This document shows positions 387 to 18,386 of a DNA stretch of 58,795 nt, in pieces. Made by a program: the position numbers and the translations under genes. The notes under the pieces were generated by a model that did not search any database, was not told where the DNA came from, and worked only from the letters and a program-made list of their open reading frames with translations. The number at the start of each line of letters is the position of its first letter. The stretch's first letter is position 1. This DNA comes from an uncultured Bacilli bacterium. GTDB taxonomy: Bacteria > Bacillota_I > Bacilli_A > RF39 > UBA660. The stretch covers positions 1-58,795 of the forward strand of contig CANQYU010000002.1 of NCBI GenBank assembly GCA_947628145.1, written 5' to 3'.

Positions 387-2228
387 TTATTTTACTAGGA
401 TATCACAAATTAAATTAGTTATTTCCGTTGGATTATCAATAGGTAAGCCTTCAATTAAGCGAGCTTCAGCATAAAGTATTTTACTATATTTTTTTAATTC
501 TTCTTGGTCATTTTGATATAAGTCTTGAAGCTTTTTAGCTAAAGGATGATGAGAATTAATTTCTAAGATTTTTTCGGCATTAACTGTTTCATTAGTAGGC
601 ATGGCATTCATAACTTTTTCCATTTCAACAGATATTTCGCCCGCGGTAGATAAACAAACGGGATGATTTTTAAGTTTACTAGTAAATTTAACTTCTTTTA
701 CGTCAATTTCATTTTTCATTAAAGATAACATATCCTTAGAATTTTCATTTAAAGTTTTAAGTTCTTCTTGCTCTTCGGTTTGAGTTAAATCAACGTTATC
801 TGAACAAACATTTTTAAATTCTTTTTCGGCATATTTATTCATAACTTTAAAGACAAATTCATCTAAATAGCTAGGACATAATAGAACATCTTGATTATTA
901 GCAGCCATCGCCTCAACTTGAGGTAAAGTTTTTATTTGCTCAATTGAAGAACCACAAGCATAATAAATATCTTTAGTGTCTTTATTACTGTCAAGATACT
1001 CTTTTAAAGTAACTAATTTTTCTGATTTAGAAGAGTAAAACATTAGTAAATCTTGAAGCTTTTCTTTATCCATGCCATAACTGTTATATATTCCAGCTTT
1101 TATTTGTAAACCAAAGGCATCCCAAAATTTTAAATAATCTTCTCTTCTTTCATTTTGCATGCTTATTAATTCATTTTTAATATGGGTTTCAATATTTTTG
1201 GCAATTGTTTTTAATACTCTATTTTGTTGAAGCATTTCTCTAGAAATATTAAGAGATAAATCAGAAGAATCAACAACACCCTTAACAAAACTAAAATAAT
1301 CAGGAAGTAAATCAGCGCATTTTTCCATGATTAAAACGCCATTAGAATATAATTGTAAACCTTTTTCATATTCCTTAGAATAATAATCATAACTAGCATG
1401 AGATGGAATATAAATTAAAGAATTATATTCAAGAGTACCCTCAGCTTTAGTATGAATATGGCTTAAAGGTTTTTCATAATCAAAGAATTTATCAGAATAA
1501 AAAGTATTATATTCTTCTTCGGTTATATTTTTTTTATTACGTTTCCATAAAGGAACTAAACTATTGATAGTTTCTAATTTAGTTTCTTGGTTTTCATTTT
1601 CGGAAGATATAGTCTCTTCCATTTTGATTGGATAAGTTATGTAATCAGAATATTTTTTAATAAGTCTTTTAAGTTCGTAACTTTCTAAATAATGATTACA
1701 TTCTTCGTCATCTTTAATTGTTAAAATGATATCTGTTCCATAGCTTTCTTTATTACTTTTTTTGATAGTATAACCTTCAATTCCAGAAGAAACCCAAGAA
1801 TAAGCTTCCTCGGAACCATAAGCTTTAGATATTACCTCAACTTGGGATGCGACCATAAAGGCCGAATAAAATCCTACTCCAAATTGGCCAATAATGTCAA
1901 TATTTTGTTTCTTTTTATTTTGTTCTTTGAAATCAAATGAACCACTTTTGGCAATAGTTCCTAAATTAGTTTCTAATTCTTCTTTAGTCATACCAATACC
2001 ATTATCAGATATTGTTAAAGTTCGAGCATCTTTGTCAGCTTTAATAATTATTGCAAAAGCTTTCTTGTCAACTTTAATATTTTGATTAGTTAATGATTGA
2101 TAATGCAGTTTATCAATAGCATCCGAAGCATTAGAAATAAGTTCTCGTAAAAATATTTCTTTATTGGTATAAATTGAATTAATCATTAATTCCATTAATC
2201 TTTTAGATTCAGCTTTAAATTCTTTCAT
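387..2228 (-). CDS. htpG: Molecular chaperone HtpG (Hsp90 family)
   Basis: 613-aa ORF. The N-terminus ...MELMINSIYTNKEIFLRELISNASDAIDKL... and GIGMT, GQFGVGFYS match the GHKL ATPase motifs of HtpG. An RBS AGGAGAGAC lies upstream. Confidence 0.95.
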   Translation of the reverse strand: MKEFKAESKRLMELMINSIYTNKEIFLRELISNASDAIDKLHYQSLTNQNIKVDKKAFAIIIKADKDARTLTISDNGIGMTKEELETNLGTIAKSGSFDFKEQNKKKQNIDIIGQFGVGFYSAFMVASQVEVISKAYGSEEAYSWVSSGIEGYTIKKSNKESYGTDIILTIKDDEECNHYLESYELKRLIKKYSDYITYPIKMEETISSENENQETKLETINSLVPLWKRNKKNITEEEYNTFYSDKFFDYEKPLSHIHTKAEGTLEYNSLIYIPSHASYDYYSKEYEKGLQLYSNGVLIMEKCADLLPDYFSFVKGVVDSSDLSLNISREMLQQNRVLKTIAKNIETHIKNELISMQNERREDYLKFWDAFGLQIKAGIYNSYGMDKEKLQDLLMFYSSKSEKLVTLKEYLDSNKDTKDIYYACGSSIEQIKTLPQVEAMAANNQDVLLCPSYLDEFVFKVMNKYAEKEFKNVCSDNVDLTQTEEQEELKTLNENSKDMLSLMKNEIDVKEVKFTSKLKNHPVCLSTAGEISVEMEKVMNAMPTNETVNAEKILEINSHHPLAKKLQDLYQNDQEELKKYSKILYAEARLIEGLPIDNPTEITNLICDILVK

Positions 2229-2241
2229 ATTGTCTCTCCTT

Positions 2242-2268
2242 TTAGCACTCTAAACTATTAATTGCTAA
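2242..2268 (-). promoter_or_regulatory. Degenerate CIRCE-like inverted repeat (HrcA operator candidate) between htpG promoter and RBS
   Basis: TTAGCACTC-N9-AATTGCTAA compared with the consensus TTAGCACTC-N9-GAGTGCTAA. One half is perfect and the other matches 6/9. Confidence 0.5.
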
Positions 2269-2272
2269 TTTG

Positions 2273-2301
2273 ATTATATGCTTTTTTTAAATAATTGTCA
2301 A
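2273..2301 (-). promoter_or_regulatory. Sigma-A-type promoter of htpG
   Basis: The minus strand reads TTGACA-17 nt-TATAAT, both hexamers at consensus, about 45 nt upstream of the htpG ATG. Confidence 0.7.
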
Positions 2302-2386
2302 TATAAATTTAAAGCAATATTAAACTCTTAAAAGAAATAAATAATGGTATGAAAAAACTCTCTAAATTAGAGAGTTTGATTTCTAA

Positions 2387-2749
2387 TGGTGCCCAAGGCC
2401 GGACTTGAACCGGCACGAGCTTTAACACCCGCAGGATTTTCTTACTACTATAACTTTCGTTACCAAACAATTATGTTTGTAGTCTGGACTTTCTCTTTAC
2501 CATATCTTACGACTTAGGTATTGCCCATTAAGTCTCTACACCTTATTTACGATTTTTAATTTTGAATATTTTAGTTTCAAAACTACTCCGTAAATCTTGG
2601 CTCGGGATTGCCATCAGCGTTATCTGTAAGGTTTCCCCGAATTTGAGCAAATTCACATAATTTATTTCTAAATTAGTGCTCAAGGCCTTCCTCTAAAATT
2701 AAGTAAGAGGCCATAAGTCCTGTGCGTCTACCTATTCCGCCACTTGGGC
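2387..2749 (-). tRNA. trnL: tRNA-Leu (anticodon UAA) interrupted by a group I intron; exons 2715-2749 and 2387-2440
   Basis: The 5' exon is GCCCAAGTGGCGGAATAGGTAGACGCACAGGACTT. The 3' exon is AAAATCCTGCGGGTGTTAAAGCTCGTGCCGGTTCAAGTCCGGCCTTGGGCACCA. Joined, they give an 89-nt class II tRNA with a 7-bp acceptor stem, a CAGGA/TCCTG anticodon stem and loop CTTAAAA. Confidence 0.9.
2441..2714 (-). ncRNA. Group I intron (trnL-UAA type) inserted between U34 and A35
   Basis: The 274-nt insert follows a U and ends in G. The internal guide AGGCCTTGAG pairs with CTT|ATGGCCT and places a G.U pair at the splice site. Core blocks are CTCAAATTCGGGGAAACC, GGCAATCCCGAGCCAAG, GGTGTAGAGACTTAATGGG and AAGAGAAAGTCC, as in cyanobacterial/plastid trnL introns. 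Confidence 0.85.
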
Positions 2750-2780
2750 AGGCACTTGTCTTAATTAATAAGACTATTTA

Positions 2781-2809
2781 AGTATAATATGTTTTTAAAA
2801 GTTTTGCAA
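2781..2809 (-). promoter_or_regulatory. Putative promoter of the intron-containing tRNA-Leu gene
   Basis: The minus strand reads TTGCAA-17 nt-TATACT, about 30 nt upstream of tRNA position 1. Confidence 0.5.
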
Positions 2810-2844
2810 GCTTTTTTGTATATTTTTTAATAAAAAAGCGGAAC

Positions 2845-4692
2845 TTATTCAGATATATTAGTTATTTTACTTAAATTATAAGTGACAGATAGAATATTTT
2901 CATTTAAAATAAAGTCTTCATCAGCAATTGTGATTTCAGTTTGGAAATAATTATTTAAAGCAGCAATGATTTCTTGCATTTCATTTTTTATTTCAAGCAT
3001 AGCCATTTCATCACTTGGATTTTCTAATTCTTTAGTTAGATTAATTGTTAAATGAGCTTCAATATTAGTAAAACTAATAGTAATATTATTAGAAATTGGA
3101 GTTGCTAGTAAGTTGGTTAAAATATTTAACTTTAAGTTACTTTCCCCTTCTAAATTACTTAGATTTAATATTAAATAATAATTTTTTTCAGGTTCATATA
3201 GAATATAATAATCATTAAAAGTTAGGGGTTCTTCTTTAGAAATATTTGCAATATAAGGTTTAAATAAAGTATCCTCACTTAGTGTTTTAGCATAATTTTC
3301 AGATAAAATATCTTGATAATTTGTAATTAGGTAATTATATATTTTTTCAGAATAATTTATAGTTGGCTCTTCTATTGGAGGCTCGCTTGGGTTAGTTGGC
3401 TTTTCATCGCCTGATTCTTCAGGAGTAGGAGTTTTTTCCTCTTCTTTTGGTTCGGTTAAAGATGGACTTTCTAGGGACGGGCCACTTATTATTGGAGGTT
3501 CATTTTGAGAATTTTTATAGGTTAAGGCATTATTTTTTATAGTTTCAATGTCTACTAAAAATTGATAATAAGGAGCGATTGAATCCCTAGTTTTTACAAA
3601 TCCGTCTAATTCATTATTATTTAATACAAAATAAGAAATACCTTGATTTTCAGATTTGGCATTAATATAATCCAACACATCTTGTTTATCTTGACCTTCT
3701 AGGCCATAATATTCCGTTAAATAATAATCAAAGGCGTCATTAATATCTTTTGATTTTTCAGATGAAAAATATACAAACATATTATTATTAAGATAATTAG
3801 TTCTGGCATAGCCAACAAAATTATCGGTAACTTTGATTATATAATAATCAAGATTAGAAGCATCAATATCTAAACCTTTTAATTTTTCAATATTAATCGT
3901 AGATTCATTAATATAATTGCTTAAATATTTATTTATTTCATTATAATATTCTGTATATGGATAATAGTGAGCATCAAACCAATTTAGAATTTCTTCATAT
4001 AAGTTGCGTAATTCTCCTTCTTTTATTTTATTTATTTCAAAGGTTAAGTCTTCATCTCTCATTGGATGTTCAGCTATATATTTACTAAGAATTTCTTCAT
4101 AGCCACCTTTTAAATAAGTAAAGGAACCTTCCCCGACTATTTCTTCTTTTATTTCAATATTTGGCAAATTAATATATTTTTCATTTCCTTTTATAATGGT
4201 AATATCGTTAACTTTACATTTAATGAAAGCTTCAATACGAGTTGTACTCTCTTCATTATAAGATGGGGAGCTAGGGGTATCATATGTAATAGTATTCCCG
4301 GCAATTTTCCCTATATTAACTGGTGTACCTGTTGAATAATCTTTTGATGTAATGCTAGTTATTTCACAAATATTTTTAACACTTTCTGCTAATTTGATTG
4401 TATAAATTTCTTTTGTGTTATCAAAAATTACATTATTACGTTTAAAACTAAGATTGGCTATAAAGTCTTCATAATTACTTTCACTTCCTAAACTAAATTG
4501 TTCAGGGGTAAAAGCTGTATTTTCATGAAGATTAATAAGATTATTTTCAAAAGCTAAAACATAATCTTGGGGTTCTTTAATATATCTAGCAGAAGATTTT
4601 GGAAAAGCATTAAAACATGTTATACCTAAAATTATTAAGGTATAAAGCATAATTTTTAATACTTTAGAATTAGTAAATGATTTTTTTAACAT
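2845..4692 (-). CDS. Secreted protein of unknown function with a SipW-substrate-like N-terminus and a Pro/Glu-rich linker; last gene of the SipW/TasA-like operon
   Basis: 615-aa ORF with RBS GAGGTGG. A hydrophobic N-terminus is followed by SSARYIKEPQDYVLAFEN, which resembles the N-terminal motif of the neighbouring TasA-like proteins. It carries the linker EPPIISGPSLESPSLTEPKEEEKTPTPEESGDEKPTNPSEPPIEEP. Confidence 0.75.
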   Translation of the reverse strand: MLKKSFTNSKVLKIMLYTLIILGITCFNAFPKSSARYIKEPQDYVLAFENNLINLHENTAFTPEQFSLGSESNYEDFIANLSFKRNNVIFDNTKEIYTIKLAESVKNICEITSITSKDYSTGTPVNIGKIAGNTITYDTPSSPSYNEESTTRIEAFIKCKVNDITIIKGNEKYINLPNIEIKEEIVGEGSFTYLKGGYEEILSKYIAEHPMRDEDLTFEINKIKEGELRNLYEEILNWFDAHYYPYTEYYNEINKYLSNYINESTINIEKLKGLDIDASNLDYYIIKVTDNFVGYARTNYLNNNMFVYFSSEKSKDINDAFDYYLTEYYGLEGQDKQDVLDYINAKSENQGISYFVLNNNELDGFVKTRDSIAPYYQFLVDIETIKNNALTYKNSQNEPPIISGPSLESPSLTEPKEEEKTPTPEESGDEKPTNPSEPPIEEPTINYSEKIYNYLITNYQDILSENYAKTLSEDTLFKPYIANISKEEPLTFNDYYILYEPEKNYYLILNLSNLEGESNLKLNILTNLLATPISNNITISFTNIEAHLTINLTKELENPSDEMAMLEIKNEMQEIIAALNNYFQTEITIADEDFILNENILSVTYNLSKITNISE

Positions 4693-4703
4693 ATGACCAC
4701 CTC

Positions 4704-5252
4704 TTATTGTACTTGTTTAGCAGAATAATTTACTTTAACTATATTATATGGTTCATTAGTAATATTTTTATCTGCATCATATTTATATTTAACTCTAATT
4801 TTATATTTACTAGTCTTTCTTGAACCTATGGTTACGGGCATTTTAAAGCTTCCACAATAATAACTATCATTACTTTTTTCAGTATTTTTAGTTACAGTAA
4901 TTTTTTCGTTATTTTCATCAAATATTTCAAAATCAAATTTATTATTAATTAAAACCGTTAAAAATACATCGGTTTTAACATCAAACATATAATCAACAGT
5001 AAAATAATATTCAATATAACTAGTTGGTCTATAATATCCGGTGTTACAATTATTACTTGAAATACATTGATTATCTAAATAATTAATATTTATATCAAAA
5101 GCAGCGACTTTGGCTTCACTACTACCCATCATGGTAGTCATATATTTAGAATAAGTTATAATAGTGGTAAAAAGAGCTATTACTCCTATATACATAACTA
5201 ACCATTTTTTTAAATTTTTCTTAAAAACTTTATTTTGTAATAACTCTTTCAT
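4704..5252 (-). CDS. Small TasA/BsaA-like secreted protein (minor subunit candidate)
   Basis: 182-aa ORF with RBS AGGTGA. A TM/signal segment is followed by ITYSKYMTTMMGSSEAKVAAFDI. The C-terminal ...YNIVKVNYSAKQVQ parallels ...YILNVTVTATQ of the 8889-9575 protein. Confidence 0.75.
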   Translation of the reverse strand: MKELLQNKVFKKNLKKWLVMYIGVIALFTTIITYSKYMTTMMGSSEAKVAAFDININYLDNQCISSNNCNTGYYRPTSYIEYYFTVDYMFDVKTDVFLTVLINNKFDFEIFDENNEKITVTKNTEKSNDSYYCGSFKMPVTIGSRKTSKYKIRVKYKYDADKNITNEPYNIVKVNYSAKQVQ

Positions 5253-5260
5253 ATTCTCAC

Positions 5261-5950
5261 CTACTTCTTTTTATTTTTCTTCTTTCTTTTTTTATTTTTC
5301 TTGGGTTTAGTTTTTTTAACTCTTTTGGTTTTCTTTTTCTTCTTTTTTTGCTTTTTTTCTTTTTTAAATTTATTTTTTATTTTTAATATTAATTCTTTTA
5401 CTTTAGAAAGTTTTGGTTCTTCTTTGGAGGCAATGAATTCTTCTTTTTCTTCTAAAGGCTCTCCAAATCGATTAGTACTAATTAAATAACATATGAGAAT
5501 ACCAATAATTAAAATCATAATACTAACCAGAGGATTACGTAAAGAAGCAAGAATTATACCAACACCACTTAATTTAAAGAGATACTTACCAACAATATTT
5601 TCTTTAGGTAAAGGTTCATCTTCAGTATTATTAGCATCACCTTTAGTAATTATATTTTCTTGATTTAAAGATACTAAACGATGAGTTACAAAGGAGCCAT
5701 TAATATCATAAAAAGTAATTATATCATTTACTTTATAATTTTTTTCTTTAGTATTAATGATTATTAAATCGCCTTCTTTTAAAGTTGGTCGCATAGAACC
5801 AGTGGCAACTTCTAAAATAGCATATCCATTTATGGTTGGTAGAGCTTTTTTAAATATTTTTAAACTGATAAAATTATATAAATTAAATAATAATATTAAA
5901 CTTAAAATAATTGTTATAATAGTTGTTAATAGTTTCTTAAGCTTTTTCAT
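5261..5950 (-). CDS. sipW: Signal peptidase I, archaeal/ER (SipW) type, paralog 2, with a poly-lysine C-terminal tail
   Basis: 229 aa with an N-terminal TM, the ATGSMRPTL Ser box, THRLV His box, KGDANN box and a second TM. The tail is KKEKKQKKKKKKTKRVKKTKPKKNKKRKKKNKKK. The ATGA start overlaps the upstream stop. Confidence 0.85.
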   Translation of the reverse strand: MKKLKKLLTTIITIILSLILLFNLYNFISLKIFKKALPTINGYAILEVATGSMRPTLKEGDLIIINTKEKNYKVNDIITFYDINGSFVTHRLVSLNQENIITKGDANNTEDEPLPKENIVGKYLFKLSGVGIILASLRNPLVSIMILIIGILICYLISTNRFGEPLEEKEEFIASKEEPKLSKVKELILKIKNKFKKEKKQKKKKKKTKRVKKTKPKKNKKRKKKNKKK

Positions 5951-8706
5951 GGTGTTTCCTCACAAGTGTTATCGATTGTTTCAAAATCTAATCTTACGGT
6001 TAATTCATAAATGGTATTACCTTGCTCAGCAGCCATAATGCCAATTTTAGTATCGGCTATGTCATCTTTTTCTATCCATTTCCAAAAAAGGATTATTTCT
6101 ATAGCTTCCCCATTACTAACGGAAATAAATGGGTCATTATCGGTTACTAATGGAACATCAGCGACATGGTTATCTTCATTTAAAATTTTATAATTATCTT
6201 GATTTGATTTATATTCGCCATAATAGTAGTAGGTTTTAGCTTCTATTTTAGGACTATACTTAAAGATATATCCCATATTTAAACATTTATTATTAACACA
6301 TACTTCATTTTCAGTTAAATTAATATTGGTTAAATTAATGGTTTTTCCACTATTATTATTGATAACCATGGTATATGAACCTTTAGCACCAGGATAAATA
6401 ACTTTATCTTGACCATATTTTTGTTCATATTCCTCATTATGGAATAAATCTACTTCAGTTAAATATAAAGATTTAGAATTAAAGTTTTTTTCGAACGTCT
6501 CTTTTTCATTATAGATAGCATATAAATATAAATTGCTATCTATTTCTATTTCTTCTAAACTATAAGTTTTTCCTTTTCCATCAGTTTCAGTATTATAACT
6601 TGCAATTTCATAATATTTACAATTATCGGTTGCTTTATAAGCAAGTTCATTAGCTAAATTTAAAGTACTTCCTTTAGCTAAAGTGTATTCTTTAATGGTA
6701 GTAAATTCATCATAAAAGCCTCCATTAGCATTTAAAGTAACAAGATATTTTTCATTAACATTAATTGTAATATCTAATTCTTTTACATAATTAGGAGCTA
6801 TACCTTCAATATGAATTTGATACTTGCCTTCTTGTTTAGCTCTAACTTTAAAACTTAAAGAAGTATTACCATTATCATTATTAAAAGTAATTTCTAAAGC
6901 TTCACGATTATAGGAAATATTTATACAAATATTAGGTTCTAATTCCGAACATATTTTTAAATTACCATCAATTTCTTCAACTTTGACTTTACCTAGGAAA
7001 AAGTTAGTATTTAAAACTATATTTTTTTCACCAGTTTCATTTAATAGAGATAAATCATATGTATCACTATAAGTTGTTAGATAATAATTATGACTTAAGA
7101 ACTGTAAGTTAGTAGAAGAACTCGTAGAAGCATCTTCATAATTTAAAGTTAAAGTAGTTTTTTTATCAGCAAAATTAGCTTGAGGGGTAACTTTTATTTC
7201 GCCTTTGGTTAATTCTATATTATTTTGATATAAACTTTCGATTTCCATCTTAATATCATTTAAATCATAATCTGTAATAGGTGTTCCCTCTTCGTCAATA
7301 CTATATTTTATAATAATTGAACCATCTTCTAAATAAATGATATATTCTTCTTTTTCAAAAATAATATTTCTAATTTTACGATGAACTGTTACGGTATAAG
7401 TAGTAGAACTAGTACCATTAGAAACTTCAATTTCAATTTGATTATCTCCTGGTTGTAATTGAAAGTCTTTTAAATTACTAGAGGTTTTACCATTATAGTG
7501 ATATTTTATTTCATTATTTCTATTTTCGGGTGTACCACTTAAAGTTAATTCATTTTGATTAAAAGGAACATCAACCGTATAATTAAAGCGATTTTTATTA
7601 AATTCTTCGTTAAATTTAAAATCCTCAGTTATTTCGAGATTTTCTAAATATGGTTTTTGAACTGAACCTGAAGAACCAGAAGATGGAGAATTTTTGCGTT
7701 CAATAGTTACTTCATATGTAGAACTTGTTCCATCCTCCGCGGTGACAGTTATTTCTAATTTATTGTTACCTACTTGTAATTCTAAATTTTTTAAATCCGA
7801 AACCTCTTTTCCATTAAATTTGTAGGTTAAAGTAGATTTAGAACTTGATGGGAAAGCTTCAAAACTAACTTTGTCTTGAGAATTAGAAACGCCTAAATAA
7901 TACTTATAAACATTACTTTTAAAATCTAAAGAACCAACCGAACTAGTTAAAGCTTTTAAATTATGATTACTTTCTAAATTATTTTTACTATCTGTAATAT
8001 ATACTTTATAAGTAGTGGTGTATTCTTTACCCTCATAAATTACTTTTAAAGTAATAGTTGTATTACCTTTTTTTAAACCAGTTATTTTTAAAATACCATT
8101 TTTAGCACTAGCACTCACAATATTTTTGTCATTTATAATTACTTTAACATCACCAATTAAATTTATTAAATTATAAGTAACATTTTTAATTTTATTTTCA
8201 TTTAAATATATAGTTCCTTTAGGACTTGATAATAAAATATAGCGATTACTTTCTTTAATATTTATTTCGGTTTTAGCTTGATATTTTTCACCATTAGCTT
8301 TAGTTTCTAAGATAATATTTACTTTACCTACTTGTTTAGGATTTACAACTACATATCCATCTTTTACATAACAAGTGGCAATATCAGCATTAGATGTAAT
8401 ACAAGTAAATTCTTTAGGATTAATATTTTTATAAGTATAAGTGATTTTTAAATTAGTATCGCTTAAATACATATTTACGTTTGACGTATCAAAACGTAAA
8501 TATGTATTTATATTAATTTTTTCTTCGTTAGTATCACTATTTATATCAAACTCGCCTTTATTTTCAAAAATATTACCTATTCTACCCCATAACTTAGAGG
8601 TACAACTGCAACTGGTAATTAGAGAAATAATTATAATGATAATAATAATTAATATCATTATTCGTCTTTTAGTTTTGTTACTATCTCTTTTATTATCATT
8701 ATCCAT
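5947..8706 (-). CDS. Large multidomain surface protein: N-terminal TM/possible lipobox, Ig-like repeats, two cadherin-like beta-sandwich repeats, a Listeria-Bacteroides-type repeat and a C-terminal TasA-like domain
   Basis: 919-aa ORF with RBS AAAGGAGAAA. Repeats ending ...LQVGNNKLEITVTAEDGTSSTYEVTIERK and ...LQPGDNQIEIEVSNGTSSTTYTVTVHRK are present, as is YLVTLNANGG...NLYLYAIY. The C-terminal VIYPGAKGSYTMVINN...ILFWKWIEKDDIADTKIGI...YELTVRLDF parallels the protein at 8889-9575. Confidence 0.85.
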   Translation of the reverse strand: MDNDNKRDSNKTKRRIMILIIIIIIIISLITSCSCTSKLWGRIGNIFENKGEFDINSDTNEEKININTYLRFDTSNVNMYLSDTNLKITYTYKNINPKEFTCITSNADIATCYVKDGYVVVNPKQVGKVNIILETKANGEKYQAKTEINIKESNRYILLSSPKGTIYLNENKIKNVTYNLINLIGDVKVIINDKNIVSASAKNGILKITGLKKGNTTITLKVIYEGKEYTTTYKVYITDSKNNLESNHNLKALTSSVGSLDFKSNVYKYYLGVSNSQDKVSFEAFPSSSKSTLTYKFNGKEVSDLKNLELQVGNNKLEITVTAEDGTSSTYEVTIERKNSPSSGSSGSVQKPYLENLEITEDFKFNEEFNKNRFNYTVDVPFNQNELTLSGTPENRNNEIKYHYNGKTSSNLKDFQLQPGDNQIEIEVSNGTSSTTYTVTVHRKIRNIIFEKEEYIIYLEDGSIIIKYSIDEEGTPITDYDLNDIKMEIESLYQNNIELTKGEIKVTPQANFADKKTTLTLNYEDASTSSSTNLQFLSHNYYLTTYSDTYDLSLLNETGEKNIVLNTNFFLGKVKVEEIDGNLKICSELEPNICINISYNREALEITFNNDNGNTSLSFKVRAKQEGKYQIHIEGIAPNYVKELDITINVNEKYLVTLNANGGFYDEFTTIKEYTLAKGSTLNLANELAYKATDNCKYYEIASYNTETDGKGKTYSLEEIEIDSNLYLYAIYNEKETFEKNFNSKSLYLTEVDLFHNEEYEQKYGQDKVIYPGAKGSYTMVINNNSGKTINLTNINLTENEVCVNNKCLNMGYIFKYSPKIEAKTYYYYGEYKSNQDNYKILNEDNHVADVPLVTDNDPFISVSNGEAIEIILFWKWIEKDDIADTKIGIMAAEQGNTIYELTVRLDFETIDNTCEETP

Positions 8707-8770
8707 AGTATTTCTCCTTTCTTTATTTTAAGTATTAAACTCTCAAATAAAGATATACTATAAATAAGCT

Positions 8771-8854
8771 AATAATAAGTACTTATTATTAATAAAGATG
8801 TATATCTTTATTAATAATAAGTACTTATTATTAATAAAGATGTATATCTTTATT
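8771..8854. repeat. Perfect tandem duplication of a 42-bp unit, each unit holding two palindromes
   Basis: AATAATAAGTACTTATTATTAATAAAGATGTATATCTTTATT occurs twice (8771-8812 and 8813-8854). It contains the palindrome AATAATAAGTACTTATTATT and the stem AATAAAGAT/ATCTTTATT. It sits between the TasA-like gene and the 919-aa gene. Confidence 0.9.
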
Positions 8855-8855
8855 T

Positions 8856-8874
8856 GGAAGTTTAATTAACTTCC
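8856..8874 (-). other. 7-bp stem-loop directly after the TasA-like stop codon
   Basis: GGAAGTT-TAATT-AACTTCC. There is no U-tract on the minus strand, so it is not a canonical terminator. Confidence 0.5.
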
Positions 8875-8888
8875 TTTTGTGAATAGCT

Positions 8889-9575
8889 TTATTCAGCAGT
8901 AGCAGGTGCTTGAGTAGCTGTTACAGTTACATTAAGAATATAATCTGTTCTGTTAGCGTTGGCAGATGCAATTCCTAAAGCAGTATCTGTTTTACCATCT
9001 TGGCCATCTTCATACGGCCATTCCCAAACTATAAATAATTTTTTTTCTTCTGCGCCAAAATTTTGTAATAAAGTATCCTCAGAAATTTTAGCTTCTTCAG
9101 CTAAAGTATAAGTATGGCCTGAACCACCAATTGTTTTTCCTTCAAATGACTCTGTTGGTGGCGTTTTAGTTCCTGAATCTTCTAAAATAAGGGTATATTT
9201 TAGAGGAACAGTTGATGCAGTTCCTGTTGCTTTTAAGGCTAATGAAATATTAGCTTTTACATCAGACTCATTTTTTAATGAAATAACTGCCCATCCTTTA
9301 GAACCAGGAGCAATAATTTCACTATCATTATCAGTATCACTTATAAGACTGTTATTTTTTTCATTTTGAGCATTTTTAAATATTTCAAAATCAAATGATG
9401 CTTCCTCCACAGTTCCTTCTGTTTCGTCTACAGTAAATTTCCATTTTGCTATTTTAGCTGTATCTGATGTACCTGTAAAAGTGCTTGTATATTTAGCATA
9501 TGTACCTGCAACTGAATAACCAGTAACTAATACAGCTGCTAATAATACAGCTAAAACGATTAATTTCTTTTTCAT
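8889..9575 (-). CDS. TasA/BsaA-like secreted matrix/fibre protein (major subunit candidate) with a SipW-type signal peptide
   Basis: The start is taken at the ATG preceded by AAAGGAGGTGAAACA; the upstream part of the ORF encodes that RBS. The sequence is MKKKLIVLAVLLAAVLVTGYSVAGTYAKYTSTF..., then IIAPGSKGWAVISLKN and ...FIVWEWPYEDG...DTALGI...YILNVTVTATQ. GC content looks locally higher than in the neighbours. Confidence 0.85.
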   Translation of the reverse strand: MKKKLIVLAVLLAAVLVTGYSVAGTYAKYTSTFTGTSDTAKIAKWKFTVDETEGTVEEASFDFEIFKNAQNEKNNSLISDTDNDSEIIAPGSKGWAVISLKNESDVKANISLALKATGTASTVPLKYTLILEDSGTKTPPTESFEGKTIGGSGHTYTLAEEAKISEDTLLQNFGAEEKKLFIVWEWPYEDGQDGKTDTALGIASANANRTDYILNVTVTATQAPATAE

Positions 9576-9688
9576 TGTTTCACCTCCTTTATATTTATAT
9601 TTTTGCATAAATTTTTAGTATAGGAATTTATGCTTATTCCTAATCTATGTAAACGTCATAAGACTGTTTACCTAATTTAATTTTAAGA

Positions 9689-10309
9689 CTATTTAGTCTT
9701 TTTTTCAATGGAAGAATTTGTCTCTTCTTCTTTCATACGTTTATATTCTAAATATTCTTGATGTTCTAAATCTCTTTGTTTTTTAGTAGAAATTGTAAAA
9801 CCAAGAATAAAGATAATTGTTATACCTAATAATAATATTATAATAGTTGTAGGTTCAGATAAACTTTTCATTAAAGAACCTATTCCTGGTATTCTTAAAA
9901 CATATATACCTTCAACATCTTCATATTCAACTAAGTTTTGGTCTTGAGTATTGTTATTATCTCCTTTAGTAATAAAATAATTAATGCCCTCATCTTCTAC
10001 AATATCAATTATTCTATGGGTAGTAACTGTTTCTTCACTATCTTTAAAAGCAATTATATCATTTACTTTTAAAGTTTCGGGTTTAACTATTTTAGTTATA
10101 ATTAAATCACCAGTGTAAATTTCTGTTTCCATAGAACCTGATAAAACAATAAATGGTTTATAACCAAAAATACTTGGTACTTTATCAGGATTATGATGGG
10201 ATTGATAAATTATATAAATATTAATTAATAATATGGGAATTAATATTATACATATTGCGATAATTAACCAATTACTAAATTTTTGATACCACTTTTTTTC
10301 TTTTTTCAT
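9689..10309 (-). CDS. sipW: Signal peptidase I, archaeal/ER (SipW) type, paralog 1
   Basis: 206 aa with an N-terminal TM, LSGSMETEI Ser box, THRII His box, KGDNNN box and a C-terminal TM. Its ATG overlaps the upstream stop as TAATG. Confidence 0.9.
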   Translation of the reverse strand: MKKEKKWYQKFSNWLIIAICIILIPILLINIYIIYQSHHNPDKVPSIFGYKPFIVLSGSMETEIYTGDLIITKIVKPETLKVNDIIAFKDSEETVTTHRIIDIVEDEGINYFITKGDNNNTQDQNLVEYEDVEGIYVLRIPGIGSLMKSLSEPTTIIILLLGITIIFILGFTISTKKQRDLEHQEYLEYKRMKEEETNSSIEKKTK

Positions 10310-12318
10310 TACTTCATACCTCTTTCATTTTTCTTTGTTAAAACTAACATTACCGGTTTATTTTCGTCGGGTAAATAATTTATTTGTTGTGGTTTTTCTT
10401 CAGGTTCAGAGTTTACTAAAGGTCTAGAATAACCACATGTCATACATATTTCTTCATTTTTATAAACCATAAAATTATGAGTTGTATTATATTTGATATT
10501 AACCCAGCCACAGTCTTTACAAGCATTGGTTACTGTCTCACAAATTTCAGCAGTACCTATAATTTCTCTATTATCTCTTAAGGTGTGAACGTGAGTTTGA
10601 ACTCTTTCATAAGCACAACCATCATTAGTACATTTATAAGTTATGGCGCCTTCTGCAGATAATAAAGTTTCAAGATTATGGGCACGATTTGTGGTTTTTC
10701 CACATTCACAACTTAAAGTTTCTTGTGTTTCATTATAACTCTGAACTTGCCAATTATGAGTGTGATATTCGGTTTTTTGATATCCACATTCTGGATGAAT
10801 ACATTTATAAGTCATTGAATAATCATCTGGATTTCTTGTACCACTATCTAAAGAATGAGGAATGGTTGTAGTTTCATTACAGCTACAAGCCCAATACTCA
10901 TAATTATCGTCATATTTCTCAAAAATATTAAATTTATGAACATGAGGTGGCTCAGTAGTTTTTTGATAGCCACATCCTGGATTAATACATTCATAAGTGG
11001 TAGAACCATCAGCATTAAGAGTTGATTTAAGATTATGAGAAGCTTTTTTGGTTATGCCACAAGAACATTCTAAATATTCATAATCAGCATCAAAATTTGT
11101 AATTACAAAACTATGCGTATGAGTTGGTTTTACTATTTTTTCATAATTGCAACCTTTATTCTCACAGCTATAAACTATAGAGCCATCGCTTCTCGGACTG
11201 CCGGGCGATAGTTTATGCATAACCTTATTTAACTGGCCACAACTGCAAGCCCAATATTCATAATTATCGTCATAATTTTGAAGCTTAGTATAATCATGGG
11301 TATGTTTTAGAGTATTTTTATAATCACACTCGGGGTTGGTACATTTATAAGTGATTGAGCCATCTTGGCCAACTATTTCTTCTAAATTATGAGGTATTTC
11401 GGTAGTTTTACCACATACACAAGCTTTAGTTTCGCCATTTTCATTATAAGACTTTAAAAGATTATAATTATGATTATGTTCTTTAGTTTCTATATAATTA
11501 AATTCTAAACATCTTCGTTCATCTTCATTAGTCTTAGGATTATATGTCCAATCAGTAAAAGTTAATTTTTTAGATTCTTCTAAAATAATTAATTCATTAC
11601 CACAATTTTCACAAACTTTAGTAGTAATAATTTTATAAGTTCCATTTTCATAATCAGGTATTTTATTACTAATTTCTTTATATAAATGTTCTCTTGTTTC
11701 GATTTCCTCACATACACATTGGCGAATTTCTTGAGCATTATTAAAGTTTTCCCATTCACCAAATTGATGGGTATGAGGACGCGTTTCAATGTAATCTAAT
11801 TCGTGACATTTTCGTTCGTCTTGTTTAGTCTCAGGATTATATGTCCAATCAGTAAAAGTTAACTCAATATTAGAAGACGAAACTAAAATTTCGTGATGAC
11901 AAGTAGAACAAACTTTTTTAATAATAGCTGTCAGAGTGTCGTCTTCATAACTAGGTAATTCCAAGATTTCTTCTTCATAATTATGAGTTCGCGTTTTTGT
12001 GGCACCACATGAACAGGTTTGAATTTCTTCTTTGTCATTTAAAGCTTCCCAAGCTCCATATTCATGGTTATGAGTTTCAGGTTCTAACGGCTGATTAACT
12101 TGAGGAGGCTCAGGTTTGACCTCGGGCTCTTTAGGTTTATTAGTGTCTTCAGGTTTACTAGGTTCTAAGGAAGGATTTAAATCGTCTTCATAAGAAATAC
12201 TAGGTTCGGTTGGTTCTTCCTCTTCTTTTTTAGAACATCCTCCCACGCCTAAAGTGATGGCTGTAGCTAAAAGAAAAGCAGCACCTCTTTTTAAAATATA
12301 TTTGGATTTTTTTTCCAT
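10309..12318 (-). CDS. Lipoprotein with a Pro/Glu-rich tether and about 8 His/Cys-rich repeat modules (putative metal-binding); first gene of the operon
   Basis: 669 aa. The signal peptide and lipobox are LATAITLGVGGC. Modules follow the pattern HxH-x(12-18)-CxC-x(7-9)-H-x(10-16)-Y.C-x(3-4)-C.Y. Two are about 99 aa and the others about 58 aa. Confidence 0.85.
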   Translation of the reverse strand: MEKKSKYILKRGAAFLLATAITLGVGGCSKKEEEEPTEPSISYEDDLNPSLEPSKPEDTNKPKEPEVKPEPPQVNQPLEPETHNHEYGAWEALNDKEEIQTCSCGATKTRTHNYEEEILELPSYEDDTLTAIIKKVCSTCHHEILVSSSNIELTFTDWTYNPETKQDERKCHELDYIETRPHTHQFGEWENFNNAQEIRQCVCEEIETREHLYKEISNKIPDYENGTYKIITTKVCENCGNELIILEESKKLTFTDWTYNPKTNEDERRCLEFNYIETKEHNHNYNLLKSYNENGETKACVCGKTTEIPHNLEEIVGQDGSITYKCTNPECDYKNTLKHTHDYTKLQNYDDNYEYWACSCGQLNKVMHKLSPGSPRSDGSIVYSCENKGCNYEKIVKPTHTHSFVITNFDADYEYLECSCGITKKASHNLKSTLNADGSTTYECINPGCGYQKTTEPPHVHKFNIFEKYDDNYEYWACSCNETTTIPHSLDSGTRNPDDYSMTYKCIHPECGYQKTEYHTHNWQVQSYNETQETLSCECGKTTNRAHNLETLLSAEGAITYKCTNDGCAYERVQTHVHTLRDNREIIGTAEICETVTNACKDCGWVNIKYNTTHNFMVYKNEEICMTCGYSRPLVNSEPEEKPQQINYLPDENKPVMLVLTKKNERGMK

Positions 12319-12357
12319 ATAATATAACCCCTTTCTTAGGCATTAAAAAGTAATTCT

Positions 12358-12385
12358 ATTATACATGAAATTGATTTTATGTCAA
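12358..12385 (-). promoter_or_regulatory. Sigma-A-type promoter of the lipoprotein-SipW-TasA-like operon
   Basis: The minus strand reads TTGACA-16 nt-TATAAT, about 40 nt upstream of the lipoprotein ATG. Confidence 0.6.
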
Positions 12386-12392
12386 ATTAAAT

Positions 12393-12740
12393 TTAAGTAT
12401 TTTTATTTATTTCATTTATTTTTTCGTTAATCCAAATATTTAAATTTTCTTTTAAAGGAAGAAAGCCATTAGTATCGCGTTCTTCCATACTTTTACCATC
12501 AACTTTATAATTAATATTTTTAATAGATAATTTTAAATGTTTAGTTTCTTCGTCGACATCAATTATTGAGGCATAGATTGTTTCGCCAATTTCACCATAA
12601 TCATTAACATTACGAACAAAGCTTTCTGATATTTCCGAAATATGAATTAAACCATCATAATCAGGAGATACTTTAACAAATATGCCATATTCTTTAAAGC
12701 CTGTGATAGTGCATTTTATAATATCACCTTTTTTATACAT
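12393..12740 (-). CDS. S1 RNA-binding domain protein (YugI/GSP13-like)
   Basis: 115 aa. GDIIKCTITGFKEYGIFVKV...YDGLIHISEIS..FV is a typical S1 fold signature. Confidence 0.8.
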   Translation of the reverse strand: MYKKGDIIKCTITGFKEYGIFVKVSPDYDGLIHISEISESFVRNVNDYGEIGETIYASIIDVDEETKHLKLSIKNINYKVDGKSMEERDTNGFLPLKENLNIWINEKINEINKNT

Positions 12741-12820
12741 AATATTTCACCAATTAAATTATAACATATTTAGCTTTACTTTAGTATTTTTTTAAATTAT
12801 AATGGTTTTGGTGACATTTT

Positions 12821-13045
12821 ATGGACAATAAAATTAAAGAATTAATTGATGATTTAAGGCCCCTTTTACAACAAGATGGTGGAGATATAGAGTTTATTAG
12901 ATATGAAGATAATTATGTCTTTATAAAACTTAAAGGAGCTTGTGCTAATTGTGGATTTCAAGATAATACTATAAGTTTTGGAATTGAAAATTATTTAAAA
13001 GAACAAATACCAGAAATTGAAGGAGTTATAAATGTTGATTTATAA
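12821..13045 (+). CDS. NifU C-terminal-domain (Nfu/YutI-like) Fe-S cluster protein
   Basis: 74 aa with LRPLLQQDGGDIEF and the CxxC motif in LKGACANCG. Confidence 0.85.
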   Translation: MDNKIKELIDDLRPLLQQDGGDIEFIRYEDNYVFIKLKGACANCGFQDNTISFGIENYLKEQIPEIEGVINVDL

Positions 13046-13969
13046 TTCCTTTTTTAAAAGCCATTCTATTCTTTCTATGGGCGCGTATTTACTTATTTCA
13101 TAGTAAGCTTTTTTTAAAAATATTTCATAATCATTAGCTTTTTCAATAATAGGAATTAATTTTTCTTCCTCTTCTTCTTTATTCATAATTTCCTCATATA
13201 AATCAAAATAATAAGTGGGATATAAAAGACGAGCATATAATAAAGATAAACTATAAATAGAAAAAGGTTGCTCTTTTAAAGCTTCTTTTAAATAACTTAA
13301 AGCATCTTCTTCGGCAAAGAAAGAACTTTTAATATACTCAGCAATATCGCGAACTTCATAATCAAAAATAAAACTTAAAGGATTTAAATAATTTAAATAA
13401 TAATTAGGATATTTAATCCGACGATGAGATAAGACTATTTTATCTAGAGATGTTTGTTTATATTTGTTTAAAGTATTTGTAACATAACTGATGGCATTTT
13501 CACCTAAACCAATATAATAACTAAAACTATCTAAAATAATATTTTTATCTTTACCTAATTCAGAGATTTGATACTCAAAATAATCAATTTTATCACTCCA
13601 AAGTTTAGCCCAAGAAATACGATATAAATTACTTTTATTAGGGGTTAAAACTAAACTACTACTTATTTTCATTAATTCAATTAAAGATATTTCATTAGTA
13701 TTATTAGGGATAGGTCTTAATAAACAATAATTAGTATTATAAACATTAGTTATAAGCTTACCAAAAATATTAGGGATAAATTCATGAACATTTATACCTC
13801 TAGTTCGTAGTTCTTCACATACACTTAAAATATCTTTTAATTCTTTTTCATTACGATTAAAAGGAACAAAATAATATTCAATGTTATTTAAAGTAAAAGT
13901 ATAAATATAATCCCATTTTTCTAAATCAGCAATATTTAAATTATAATAGTAATTTAAGCTCTCTTTCAT
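13040..13969 (-). CDS. CotS-family spore coat protein kinase-like (YutH-like)
   Basis: 309 aa. It resembles the ORF at 16623-17519 and the CotS/YutH family, and it is convergent with a yutI-like gene, as I recall for Bacillus. The assignment is by eye only. Confidence 0.55.
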   Translation of the reverse strand: MKESLNYYYNLNIADLEKWDYIYTFTLNNIEYYFVPFNRNEKELKDILSVCEELRTRGINVHEFIPNIFGKLITNVYNTNYCLLRPIPNNTNEISLIELMKISSSLVLTPNKSNLYRISWAKLWSDKIDYFEYQISELGKDKNIILDSFSYYIGLGENAISYVTNTLNKYKQTSLDKIVLSHRRIKYPNYYLNYLNPLSFIFDYEVRDIAEYIKSSFFAEEDALSYLKEALKEQPFSIYSLSLLYARLLYPTYYFDLYEEIMNKEEEEEKLIPIIEKANDYEIFLKKAYYEISKYAPIERIEWLLKKEL

Positions 13970-14014
13970 ATAATCACTACTAAAATATATGAAAAAACTA
14001 ATGGATATATCACA

Positions 14015-14887
14015 TTAGTTATTAGGATTAACAGGTTCAGTTGGCATTATATTATTTAAATCCATAATTCTTTTAGCATTATCATGAGCAATATTGGCAA
14101 CTTGTTCTTTAGCTTCAGCATTTGCTAAATGTTCACTAGCACTTGCCATTTTGGCGGCTATTTCTTGCTCTTTTATTTTTAAAGCTTGCTCCCTTTCATT
14201 AAGACTAGCTAATTCTTTTTGATATTTAGCTATAAGAGCATCAAACATATTTTCACAGGCCTTTAAGAATGTTTCTTTATCAGTTTGAAAATCTAAAGAA
14301 GGTGTTGCAGGTGTTATAACTGGCTCATTAACCGGAGTTACAGGCTCAACAACAGGGGCACTAGGAGTTGGAATATTAGGAATAATTGGAGTGGTTGGCG
14401 CAACATTTACAACTGGCTCATTTATAACAGGAATAGGATTAACAGGAGTTCCGGCAGCTTCCACATTAGGGCTACTTGCTTCAACGGGAGTAACAACCGG
14501 AATTTCAGGAGTTATAGTTTGAGCAACATCACTATTTTGAGGAGCAGGATTATACCGATTTTTAATGGCGTTAAAAGCATCCATATTAGGTAAAGATAAT
14601 TCTTTATAATAAGCTTCATCCGCGGTTTCAGTAGGATTTATATTAACATATTCAAAATTAGTACCATTTATAATTCCTTTTAAATAATTTTTAACTGATT
14701 GCCATTCATTATCATCAGTTATTTTTTCAAAATGGGTAGTTAATTTAGTTACATATATAATTGGTAAACCCATCGAACCAGTTTTTTCACTATCTAATAC
14801 AACATAAGTATTATTTTCAATTTTAAAAGCACTTAATAAATTTAAAGTATCAACACTTCCAGTTTTTTTAGTTATAGTTAATTTCAT
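14015..14887 (-). CDS. Hypothetical protein: small N-terminal domain, Pro/Val-rich low-complexity linker, C-terminal coiled coil
   Basis: The start is taken at the ATG after RBS GAGGGTG. The linker is PEIPVVTPVEASSPNVEAAGTPVNPIPVINEPVVNVAPTTPIIPNIPTPSAPVVEPVTPVNEPVITPATPS. Confidence 0.7.
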   Translation of the reverse strand: MKLTITKKTGSVDTLNLLSAFKIENNTYVVLDSEKTGSMGLPIIYVTKLTTHFEKITDDNEWQSVKNYLKGIINGTNFEYVNINPTETADEAYYKELSLPNMDAFNAIKNRYNPAPQNSDVAQTITPEIPVVTPVEASSPNVEAAGTPVNPIPVINEPVVNVAPTTPIIPNIPTPSAPVVEPVTPVNEPVITPATPSLDFQTDKETFLKACENMFDALIAKYQKELASLNEREQALKIKEQEIAAKMASASEHLANAEAKEQVANIAHDNAKRIMDLNNIMPTEPVNPNN

Positions 14888-14938
14888 TTTTAGCACCCTC
14901 TATTCTTTTTAATATTATAACAAATTAGGAAACGATAA

Positions 14939-15220
14939 TCAATCTTTTATTTTTTTTAACATAAACCATTTGCAGCCATATGCACAACAGTTTTCGATAT
15001 ATTCTTCAACTTTAGAAACATCATTGATTTCTTTAAAATTTTTATTACTTGGAGAATTAAAACCTTTAAGTCGCAACTTATTATAGGCAATATCTCCAAC
15101 AATATAATCAAAATCATCAAAGTAATCAGTTAATTTTTCTTCTAGTTCTTCTTTATTTAGGGCTTCTTTATAATTATTTACTATTTCATATTTTTGCCCT
15201 CTTATTTCTACTATTTCCAT
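14939..15220 (-). CDS. YutD-like protein (DUF1027 family)
   Basis: 93 aa. The pattern FDYIVGDIAYNKLRLKGF...CAYGCKWFMLKK matches my memory of B. subtilis YutD. Confidence 0.65.
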   Translation of the reverse strand: MEIVEIRGQKYEIVNNYKEALNKEELEEKLTDYFDDFDYIVGDIAYNKLRLKGFNSPSNKNFKEINDVSKVEEYIENCCAYGCKWFMLKKIKD

Positions 15221-15266
15221 AAACCCATATAATCAATTTATTAAATTGATTATTCCTTTCTTTATT

Positions 15267-16103: not shown

Positions 16104-16227
16104 TATTATTCACCTAATTTATTATATCATATTTATAGGGGTTGCTTCAATTATCAAATTATGTAAATAGCTTGACAAAAAATTAACAAAAAAAGATAAC
16201 TTTTTTAGTTTTCTAAATTTAATAAAT

Positions 16228-16300
16228 AAAAAGAGCACTCGACCAACGAGGGCTTTTAAAGCCTAAGAGAGTTTGGATAAAGGTCAAGTGCTCTTTTTTT
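16228..16300. terminator. Long imperfect hairpin flanked by an A-run and a T-run (bidirectional terminator or small structured RNA)
   Basis: AGAGCACTcGACC ... GGTCaAGTGCTCT with the nested palindrome GGCTTTtAAAGCC. The flanks are AAAAA on the 5' side and TTTTTTT on the 3' side. Confidence 0.4.
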
Positions 16301-16459
16301 ATACAGAAATATCTCTGTACACTTTAATTTTATATTTACTCTCAGTAATAGTCAATAAATTTTAAGAGCAAAAACGTTCATTTGGCATTTTATTTGTAAT
16401 TTTAAGAAAAGATATGGCCAATAGTTTCTTTAAAACATAAAATATACTAGGTGGTAGGT

Positions 16460-16648
16460 ATGTATCCAAATAAGAATTTTGGAGGAGGTTTTTTTACGAT
16501 AATAGCTATTTTTTGTTTAGCTATTTTAATATTTTATCAAATTATTATTACATTAATTTTACCTTTAAGATTTAATATTTTTATTTTACTTATAGAATCT
16601 TTTTTATTATTTTATCTATTATTTAGGATTGTTTATCCCCGGAGGTAA
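16460..16648 (+). CDS. Possible small hydrophobic membrane protein
   Basis: An ATG follows the RBS-like AGGTGGTAGGT. The product is 62 aa, almost entirely hydrophobic, and overlaps the 3' end of the convergent gene by 26 nt. Confidence 0.3.
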   Translation: MYPNKNFGGGFFTIIAIFCLAILIFYQIIITLILPLRFNIFILLIESFLLFYLLFRIVYPRR

Positions 16649-18258: not shown

Positions 18259-18324
18259 TTAATCATCTCCTAAAAAACTTTATGTTGTTCTTTAAGAAAT
18301 ATACCAAAAGTAGGCATAAATAAA

Positions 18325-18353: not shown

Positions 18354-18386
18354 CTTATAAGTAAAAGAAATTTTGGAGGTGGCAAT

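Follow-up and report, generated by a model that had tools for sequence, protein, structure and literature searches.

A seven-gene operon in an uncultured Bacilli bacterium is one copy of a widespread, unannotated Firmicutes cassette that combines two dedicated signal peptidases with TasA-like subunits. The cassette's probable product is a surface fibre that is anchored in the membrane and bears a tip protein. The operon spans positions 2845–12385 on the minus strand of contig CANQYU010000002.1 (assembly GCA_947628145.1), of which positions 1–58,795 (in nucleotides, nt; G+C 27%) form the window analysed here; a preliminary description of this DNA had read it as an expanded SipW/TasA-like fibre operon. 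We consider it likely that the cassette encodes a polymeric fibre processed by its peptidases. We lean slightly towards a sortase-independent, membrane-anchored, heteropolymeric surface fibre with distantly TasA-like jelly-roll subunits. The specific polar model that we set out for it below is possible, and we give it somewhat less than even confidence.

The operon is compact and begins at a consensus promoter. All seven co-oriented minus-strand open reading frames (ORFs) of the preliminary description are present, as are its promoter and its overlapping junctions. A sigma-70-type promoter predicted upstream of the first gene (TTGACA-16-TATAAT, 12358–12385) matches the consensus at 12 of 12 positions; the 10.6 kb from 2200 to 12800 hold two such perfect matches, this one and one before htpG. 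The genes that follow, all on the minus strand, encode a 669-amino-acid (aa) lipoprotein (10309–12318), peptidase 1 (206 aa, 9689–10309), a major subunit (228 aa, 8889–9575), a 919-aa protein (5947–8706), peptidase 2 (229 aa, 5261–5950), a minor subunit (182 aa, 4704–5252) and a 615-aa secreted protein (2845–4692). A 1-nt TAATG overlap joins the first two genes at 10309 and a 4-nt ATGA overlap lies at 5947–5950, while the downstream junctions are gaps of 8 nt and 11 nt. None of the seven proteins contains an LPxTG-type sorting signal by pattern search ([LIV]Px[TSA]G). The N-termini of the operon subunits, read from their sequences, are Lys-rich and lack a twin-arginine RR motif.

A conserved cassette with two signal peptidases

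Both peptidases of the operon are of the archaeal/endoplasmic-reticulum type of signal peptidase I, as first proposed. They score 92.4 bits (peptidase 1) and 91.3 bits (peptidase 2) on TIGR02228 (cutoff 51.85), and a PDB search links peptidase 1 to human SEC11A/C (E=2e-9). Scores on the Bacillus SipW equivalog NF046067 are 109.2 and 71 bits, both below its cutoff of 190 bits, and the two enzymes are SipW-like proteins, not SipW orthologs. They are 39% identical to each other. Across related loci, sequences at the two positions form two old paralog groups, PEP1 and PEP2, whose members share 42% and 35% identity inside their own group and 28% across groups. In each group 60 or more of 62 sequences keep Ser59 (in SGSM), His98 and Asp123, and both window proteins are among them; Asp117 is kept in 54 of 62 PEP1 and 60 of 62 PEP2 sequences. 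Peptidase 2 also ends, after its second transmembrane segment, in a poly-Lys tail of about 35 almost purely Lys/Arg residues (KKEKKQKKKKKKTKRVKKTKPKKNKKRKKKNKKK; 5261–5365, minus strand).

The operon belongs to a syntenic arrangement shared by many genomes. When one genome per GTDB species was scanned, 417 of them contained relatives; the 79 loci analysed come from the best 80 shown, and three loci fetched earlier bring the set to 82. An archaeal-type peptidase gene is adjacent in all 82 loci, and about 65 have two. The order peptidase 1, subunit or subunits, body-only protein (the counterpart of the 919-aa protein), peptidase 2, small divergent subunit is kept in 61 of 79 loci, and contig ends interrupt the cassette in most of the others. 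One to five full-length subunit genes lie between peptidase 1 and the body-only gene, and the minor subunit gene always follows the PEP2 gene. Next comes either a 615-type protein (homologs hold this position in 26–32 loci) or a protein of a Clostridial class that we call c5, which precedes, or is fused to, giants of 1,000–2,700 aa carrying GLUG or Listeria-Bacteroides repeats. The closest relatives are uncultured Bacilli or "Tenericutes"-labelled metagenome-assembled genomes (MAGs) from the gut, rabbit gut included; more distant ones include Pelotomaculum, Syntrophomonas, Desulfotomaculaceae, Oscillospiraceae, Lachnospiraceae, Ruminococcus and Tyzzerella. One locus (L015) stems from a metagenome bin assigned to Ruthenibacterium lactatiformans. 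The full seven-gene order recurs in at least 12 Bacilli-type MAGs, so the genes do co-occur as expected. The duplicated peptidase and the "adhesin" with a subunit domain had been taken as peculiar to this locus; because both recur across loci, they are instead defining features of the cassette.

Some loci depart from this plan. Certain Clostridia have the N-terminal domain of c5 joined to a giant of about 2,670 aa. Other Clostridia encode c5 (about 270 aa) and, in a separate neighbouring gene, the giant (1,000–1,850 aa, with GLUG or Listeria-Bacteroides repeats), so that a fusion/fission pattern connects them (L037, L063 and L068; ~12430–20500, plus strand). One locus (L047; 3851–9974, plus strand) has four peptidase genes upstream of one subunit gene; another (L059; 80–5371, plus strand) has five or six tandem family paralogs followed by a single peptidase.

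A shared N-terminal sorting motif connects the peptidases to their predicted substrates. The preliminary description had noticed a common sequence after the hydrophobic segment of three proteins, and across related loci it stands above chance when set against controls. In the window the predicted sites are T-Y-A↓K-Y in the major subunit, T-Y-S↓K-Y in the minor subunit and S-S-A↓R-Y in the 615-aa protein (arrows mark the predicted cut). A first regular expression was too strict, catching 117 of 249 family members, and was replaced by a broader pattern. Major subunits carry T-x-A↓K-Y in 67 of 69 cases and minor subunits x-x-S/A↓K/R-Y/F in 60 of 61; the minor-type site occurs in 27 of 30 615-type proteins and in 14 of 23 c5 proteins. 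Among controls, the motif was found in 2 of 122 peptidases, 44 of 776 other same-strand ORFs and 48 of 1371 opposite-strand ORFs. With invariant small residues at −1 and −3, the motif fits the signal peptidase rule and matches T-W-A↓A of TasA. An amphipathic strand common to majors (A.VAKW.F) and minors (ARVAKF.V) lies downstream of the site.

Two paralogous small secreted proteins of 196 and 206 aa are encoded elsewhere in the window (47148–47738 and 47851–48471, minus strand). Both N-termini (AGITYA-YLSF and VGTSYS-FYSV) are reminiscent of the T-x-A↓K-Y signal, and Cys pairs are conserved in the two proteins. Pfam and NCBIfam gave no relevant match (one match was at chance level), and we rejected them as members of the major-subunit family, since their profile matches are not significant. 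They may be extra substrates of SipW-type peptidases encoded away from the operon.

Proposed donor, acceptor and anchor components

The major subunit belongs to a large unannotated family. Its gene had been described as encoding 239 aa behind a perfect ribosome-binding site. The site stands and the length does not: the ORF from the first ATG (8889–9608) has 239 aa, but the perfect Shine-Dalgarno sequence AAAGGAGGTGA (9580–9590) lies 5 nt before, and serves, the second ATG at 9575, so the protein has 228 aa. A database gene call (P0001, 228 aa) starts at the same ATG. An exhaustive profile search of 1.84 billion representatives of 50%-identity clusters returned 7,011 matches at E≤1e-3, 3,856 of them at E≤1e-10. 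We had entertained the idea of a rare family when a word-indexed search gave 32 matches, and we dropped it in view of these roughly 7,000 clusters. The 120 best members in a collection of 5.8 billion proteins are all unnamed or "hypothetical", and nearly all derive from metagenomes or MAGs. Invariant residues, in 228-aa numbering, are T25, A27, K28, Y29, A43, W45, A89-P90-G91, G94, W184, W186, D197, T198 and Q222.

The major subunit is predicted to have a signal peptide, an amphipathic N-terminal strand and a jelly-roll body. The AlphaFold2 monomer model built on a 50-sequence alignment is a jelly roll (pLDDT 74, pTM 0.66) in which residues 25–40, right after the predicted cleavage site, are disordered. 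It supersedes a first model from 13 sequences (pLDDT 60), whose fold search was uninformative.

The 919-aa protein resembles a membrane-anchored base. It has an N-terminal transmembrane segment and an immunoglobulin (Ig)/cadherin-like stalk with two PF12733 domains (94.3 bits against a gathering score of 24.2, E=6e-27), confirming the cadherin-like domains proposed for it; the Listeria-Bacteroides repeat also proposed (PF09479) gave no match at E≤0.1. The subunit-like domain expected at its C-terminus is there: residues ~751–898 (6013–6456) match family profile positions 70–194 (hmmsearch, E=1.9e-8), without the N-terminal strand region, and BLASTP aligns this domain with the major subunit at E=0.005. 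The N-terminus has an ITSC lipobox-like site and a WGRIG motif, and no T-x-A↓K-Y motif. Related body-only proteins have a charged N-terminus and a transmembrane helix, with G[KR]IG in 34 of 63, and carry the family domain at the extreme C-terminus; their profile matches start at positions 48–87, whereas full subunits match positions 1–208. The class lacks both the cleavage site and the amphipathic strand. Its members measure ~200–430 aa in Clostridia and ~600–1,500 aa, with cadherin-like domains, in the window's lineage, where the 919-aa protein is a lineage-specific expansion of the anchored component. We rejected the idea that it is an adhesin at the fibre tip, given its transmembrane anchor and its lack of a donor strand. 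Its exact processing is uncertain because the anchor sequence in this lineage (LITSCSCTSKLWGRIG) resembles a lipobox and, weakly, the cleavage motif.

A body-only class without the strand region and an N-terminus that is disordered in the monomer model lend indirect support to donor-strand exchange. The same loci could instead encode a sorting and processing system without polymerisation, in which the motif marks surface proteins for the two peptidases and the products remain monomeric, as lectins, adhesins or coat components. What is directly demonstrated is the signal motif and its association with the peptidases; proteins with similar N-termini occur elsewhere in the window (47148–48471), and homology to known fibre subunits is not significant. 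Such a system nevertheless leaves unexplained why the body-only domain lacks exactly the N-terminal strand region, why an amphipathic strand with invariant A43 and W45 follows the site, why the N-terminus is disordered in the monomer model, and why gene order is fixed around one subunit predicted to be highly expressed. We regard it as quite improbable.

The two genes behind peptidase 2 encode the candidate adaptor and tip. The minor subunit has an AKVAAF strand after its site and a short, divergent jelly-roll body. Searched directly, it matches the family profile in the N-terminal signal and strand region (hmmsearch, E=2.3e-5); once 61 orthologs are aligned, the match to the family extends over 135 columns (hhalign 99%, E=2.6e-18). 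The homology to the major subunit expected in the preliminary description is thus borne out, and the protein is a complete, if divergent, subunit. The 615-aa protein has an N-terminal strand region and a Pro/Glu-rich linker, no direct match to the family profile (E=4.5) and no known domain in Pfam/NCBIfam scans. Its ortholog alignment matches the N-terminal region of the c5 class (hhalign 88%, E=3e-6), and c5 itself aligns with the family over the signal, the motif and the first strands (91%, E=1e-6). Proteins of this tip class carry the signal and N-terminal strand region without the body, fused to or placed before adhesin-type repeats.

These parts would fit a polar fibre assembled at the membrane. 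Sec would export the cleavable components. At its N-terminus each carries a hydrophobic anchor, then a T/S-x-A/S↓K/R-Y site, then an amphipathic beta-strand, which reads AKIAKWKF in the major subunit. The archaeal-type signal peptidase would cut at the site and free the strand, which would then, by donor-strand exchange, insert into the unfinished jelly roll of the subunit next in line towards the membrane. Since it has a donor strand and no acceptor domain, the 615-aa protein would start the fibre and end at its tip. The 182-aa subunit would adapt the tip to a shaft formed by the 228-aa subunit, which is predicted to be abundantly translated. Each newly exported subunit, added at the membrane, would accept the freed N-terminal strand of the growing fibre, and cleavage would free its own strand for the next round. 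The 919-aa protein has an acceptor domain but no donor strand, and its membrane anchor would stay uncleaved; it would take the last strand, end growth and tether the fibre through its stalk.

The model also offers roles for the second peptidase and for the spacer after the major-subunit gene. Of the two ancient paralogs, both predicted to be active, one may serve the major sites (T-x-A↓K-Y) and the other the minor and tip sites (x-x-S/A↓K/R-Y). A polar donor-strand fibre fits best in our view because parts with donor and acceptor, an anchored part with acceptor only and adhesin-like parts with donor only are complementary and come with two peptidases. It combines precedents: growth of BsaA at the base with release by SipW (PMC11580942), donor-strand exchange in TasA (PMC9674648), strand complementation by TapA (PMC10151520), and the tip, adaptor, core and anchor of the tafi, with their dedicated signal peptidase (PMC11821415).

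A stable stem-loop 3' of the major-subunit gene may set subunit stoichiometry. The 182-nt spacer there has a minimum free energy of −60.3 kcal/mol (z=−12.5) and is listed as terminator-like. It contains a structured element (8778–8874, minus strand) made of two direct tandem copies of a palindromic unit of ~46 nt (AAAGATATACATCTTTATTAATAATAAGTACTTATTATTA...), with an unusually long AT-rich stem, and a small GC hairpin. A strongly structured spacer occupies the same position in most related loci, as judged with a mononucleotide-shuffle control, which is a weaker test. The element would fit an intra-operon attenuator or a 3'-end stabiliser that raises major-subunit output; it may instead be a repeat element, not a dedicated terminator.

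The lipoprotein that opens the operon is a lineage-specific accessory of a subgroup. Its His/Cys repeats are as first described: 36 Cys and 28 His, in seven HxH...CxC...H...Cx(2-4)C units, behind a lipobox read by pattern as ...ITLGVGG-C28. It has no Pfam or NCBIfam match. Homologs occur in 16 of 82 loci by BLAST and in 28 by clustering, always upstream of peptidase 1.

Relation to TasA and other filament systems

Strict membership of the TasA or BsaA families, which the preliminary description had assigned to the substrates, is not supported by profile searches. None of the seven proteins matches PF12389, NF046066 or TIGR04090 (E≤0.1). Among 50 diverse family members searched down to E≤10, PF12389 (Peptidase_M73) and NF046066 have no match, and the relevant Pfam and NCBIfam matches are limited to two weak ones on TIGR04088 (best E=0.024); TIGR04090 is not among the 25 families listed of the 29 matched, so at most one member could match it. 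A TapA model has no match in the seven proteins or the 50 members down to E≤10. TasA, its sequence checked against PDB 8AUR, scores 513.8 bits in the TasA/camelysin test and 38 bits on TIGR04088, and PF12389 is present in its homologs; TasA is thus the positive control for these negative searches. The SipW-cognate signal proposed earlier divides in two: no window protein reaches the 19-bit cutoff of TIGR04088, yet the cleavage site aligns in register with that of TasA. Hidden Markov model (HMM) matches of TasA/BsaA or SipW type, whose absence was to count against the proposal, are lacking in the substrates and present in the peptidases, both of which pass TIGR02228.

Profile-profile and structural comparisons point to a distant resemblance. 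Aligned by hhalign with 25 TasA-family members, the family matches in the signal and cleavage region (probability 18.8%), with VSGTYA-KYTS opposite GGTWA-AFND. A permissive global alignment is not significant (0.3%), with colinear landmarks that include ...TATQ against ...EATQ, and comparison with the single TasA sequence gave a low-probability match on the C-terminal "...ATQ" strand. A PDB sequence search returned nothing for the full 239-aa ORF, the family profile, the 919-aa protein or the 615-aa protein. Searched against the PDB, the AlphaFold2 model of the 228-aa protein finds the TasA fibre first (8aur_A; E=1.2e-3, probability 0.94), a weak match with a TM-score of 0.30, and the archaeal cannula fibre 9h8b ranks tenth. 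The fold check suggested at the outset thus returned a jelly roll with the TasA fibre on top, but weakly and among viral jelly rolls.

With HMM and profile comparisons negative and the structural match weak, the family appears to fall outside TasA and BsaA in the strict sense. Judged by its predicted fold, it may plausibly belong to the wider TasA superfamily, whose jelly-roll filaments form by donor-strand exchange (PMC12518558, PMC9245690). An adjacent dedicated signal peptidase I, a mark of that superfamily, is present as at least one gene per locus.

The closest characterised systems, matrix fibres with accessory proteins (PMC9674648, PMC10151520, PMC11580942), suggest another organisation. 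In it the 228-aa protein would form an unanchored matrix fibre of TasA/BsaA type and the other products would be loose accessories, like TapA, BsaB and BsaC, with no fixed order from tip to shaft to anchor. The TasA fibre is the top structural match, and the major subunit has the strongest ribosome-binding site. A transmembrane-anchored, acceptor-only protein at a fixed gene position in nearly all loci and a donor-type N-terminus fused to adhesin repeats in the tip class point instead to a defined polar architecture, and we consider the unanchored fibre rather unlikely.

Several observations weigh against the anchored heteropolymeric fibre. No significant sequence link joins the cassette to TasA or BsaA (hhalign 19%, signal region only), and many viral jelly rolls score similarly to the TasA fibre in the structural search (E=1.2e-3, TM-score 0.30). 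The 615-aa protein is tied to the family by short N-terminal alignments (60–91% probability). The 919-aa protein contains ITSC and T-S↓K-L sequences, making lipidation or cleavage possible instead of transmembrane anchoring. The model also gives the Cys/His lipoprotein no role.

The tapA-sipW-tasA operon of B. subtilis is one clear point of comparison. There too a dedicated archaeal-type signal peptidase adjoins a predicted jelly-roll subunit, the T-x-A↓ cleavage site is in register (GGTWA↓AF versus GTYA↓KY), and an accessory protein gives or accepts a strand (TapA; PMC10151520), a role predicted here from the genes. That operon has one peptidase against two here, and no HMM or significant profile match connects the proteins. 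The present cassette differs further in its transmembrane-anchored acceptor-only component, K/R-Y at +1/+2, and tip-class proteins with adhesin repeats.

The sipW-bsaA-bsaB-bsaC operon of C. perfringens likewise unites SipW, several TasA-like paralogs and a large secreted protein (PMC7395162, PMC11580942). BsaA oligomers are membrane-associated, and growth at the membrane followed by SipW release has been proposed (PMC7395162, PMC11580942). It has a single peptidase, whereas the window operon has two and its proteins lack a TIGR04090 match. BsaC secretion depends on type IV pilus genes, of which the window operon has none. An N-E-K isopeptide triad is a feature of BsaA; a comparable bond among K28, N102 and D197, all invariant in the 228-aa family, is speculation.

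The tafi of Haloarcula hispanica (tafA-G; PMC11821415) follow the same four-role logic as that proposed here, with signal peptidase I TafD, donor-strand tip TafC, adaptor TafE, core TafA and proposed anchor TafF. They are archaeal and Tat-dependent, use one peptidase with a DUF5305-type partner, are modelled with AlphaFold, and show no detected sequence relationship to the window operon. Archaeal AbpA/AbpX bundling pili and cannulae (PMC9245690, PMC12518558) are also jelly-roll donor-strand filaments, often encoded beside a class I signal peptidase, but are homopolymers without defined anchor, adaptor or tip genes and share no sequence similarity with the cassette. Chaperone-usher and sortase pili resemble it by analogy, in their polar organisation of tip, adaptor, shaft and terminator or anchor; they belong to other fold families, and the window operon lacks genes for a chaperone, an usher or a sortase, as well as any LPxTG signal. 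The structured intergenic element after the major-subunit gene also recalls pilus operons.

Genomic setting and wider meaning

The surroundings of the operon bear on a further possibility, that the genes encode a sporulation-associated appendage or coat structure decorating spores. TasA was first described as spore coat-associated protein N, a name that database entries for TasA homologs include, and a syntenic relative carries a YutH-like spore-coat family gene and yutD upstream. The operon's promoter, however, is a perfect sigma-A-type consensus and not of a sporulation-sigma type, the flanking genes are merely syntenic neighbours, and many hosts are small-genome Bacilli or MAGs labelled "Tenericutes". 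A spore structure is therefore very improbable.

RNA genes lie next to the operon and at both ends of the window. A tRNA-Leu(UAA) gene split by a group I intron (~2441–2714) occupies 2391–2749 on the minus strand, 95 nt downstream of the operon's last gene. The intron scores 63.7 bits on Rfam RF00028 (gathering score 50). Direct ARAGORN and a whole-window Rfam run both missed the split gene; once the sequence was manually spliced, ARAGORN called tRNA-Leu(taa). The insertion lies between U34 and A35, which we take to be the site used in cyanobacterial and plastid trnL. Further tRNA genes stand at 1–187 and 58745–58795 (minus strand), and the window is probably a whole metagenomic contig broken at tRNA genes.

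Several elements of the cassette are already known: TasA-like subunits beside a signal peptidase I, paralogs sharing an operon, and archaeal models with tip, adaptor, core and anchor. Our literature search found no description of the 228-aa family, of a conserved dual-SipW cassette, or of a transmembrane-anchored acceptor-only component in Firmicutes. What is known of donor-strand fibres of TasA type that have their own signal peptidase comes mainly from a few model species, where they form a homopolymeric biofilm matrix. We tentatively suggest, while thinking it more doubtful than the polar model itself, that the cassette represents a third general class of Gram-positive pilus, besides sortase and type IV pili. 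In such a pilus, signal peptidases would gate the donor-strand assembly of dedicated anchor or terminator, shaft, adaptor and tip-adhesin subunits, and two anciently diverged, substrate-specific SipW-type peptidases would programme its order. Current annotation misses the cassette, which is widespread in uncultured gut and anaerobic Firmicutes.

The motif and the profile can be used to annotate thousands of hypothetical proteins. If the proposed mechanism holds, many gut and syntrophic Firmicutes would build anchored adhesive pili without sortase or ATPase machinery, with a bearing on colonisation, aggregation and interspecies contact. The cassette would then also offer a tractable case of signal-peptide cleavage acting as an assembly checkpoint.

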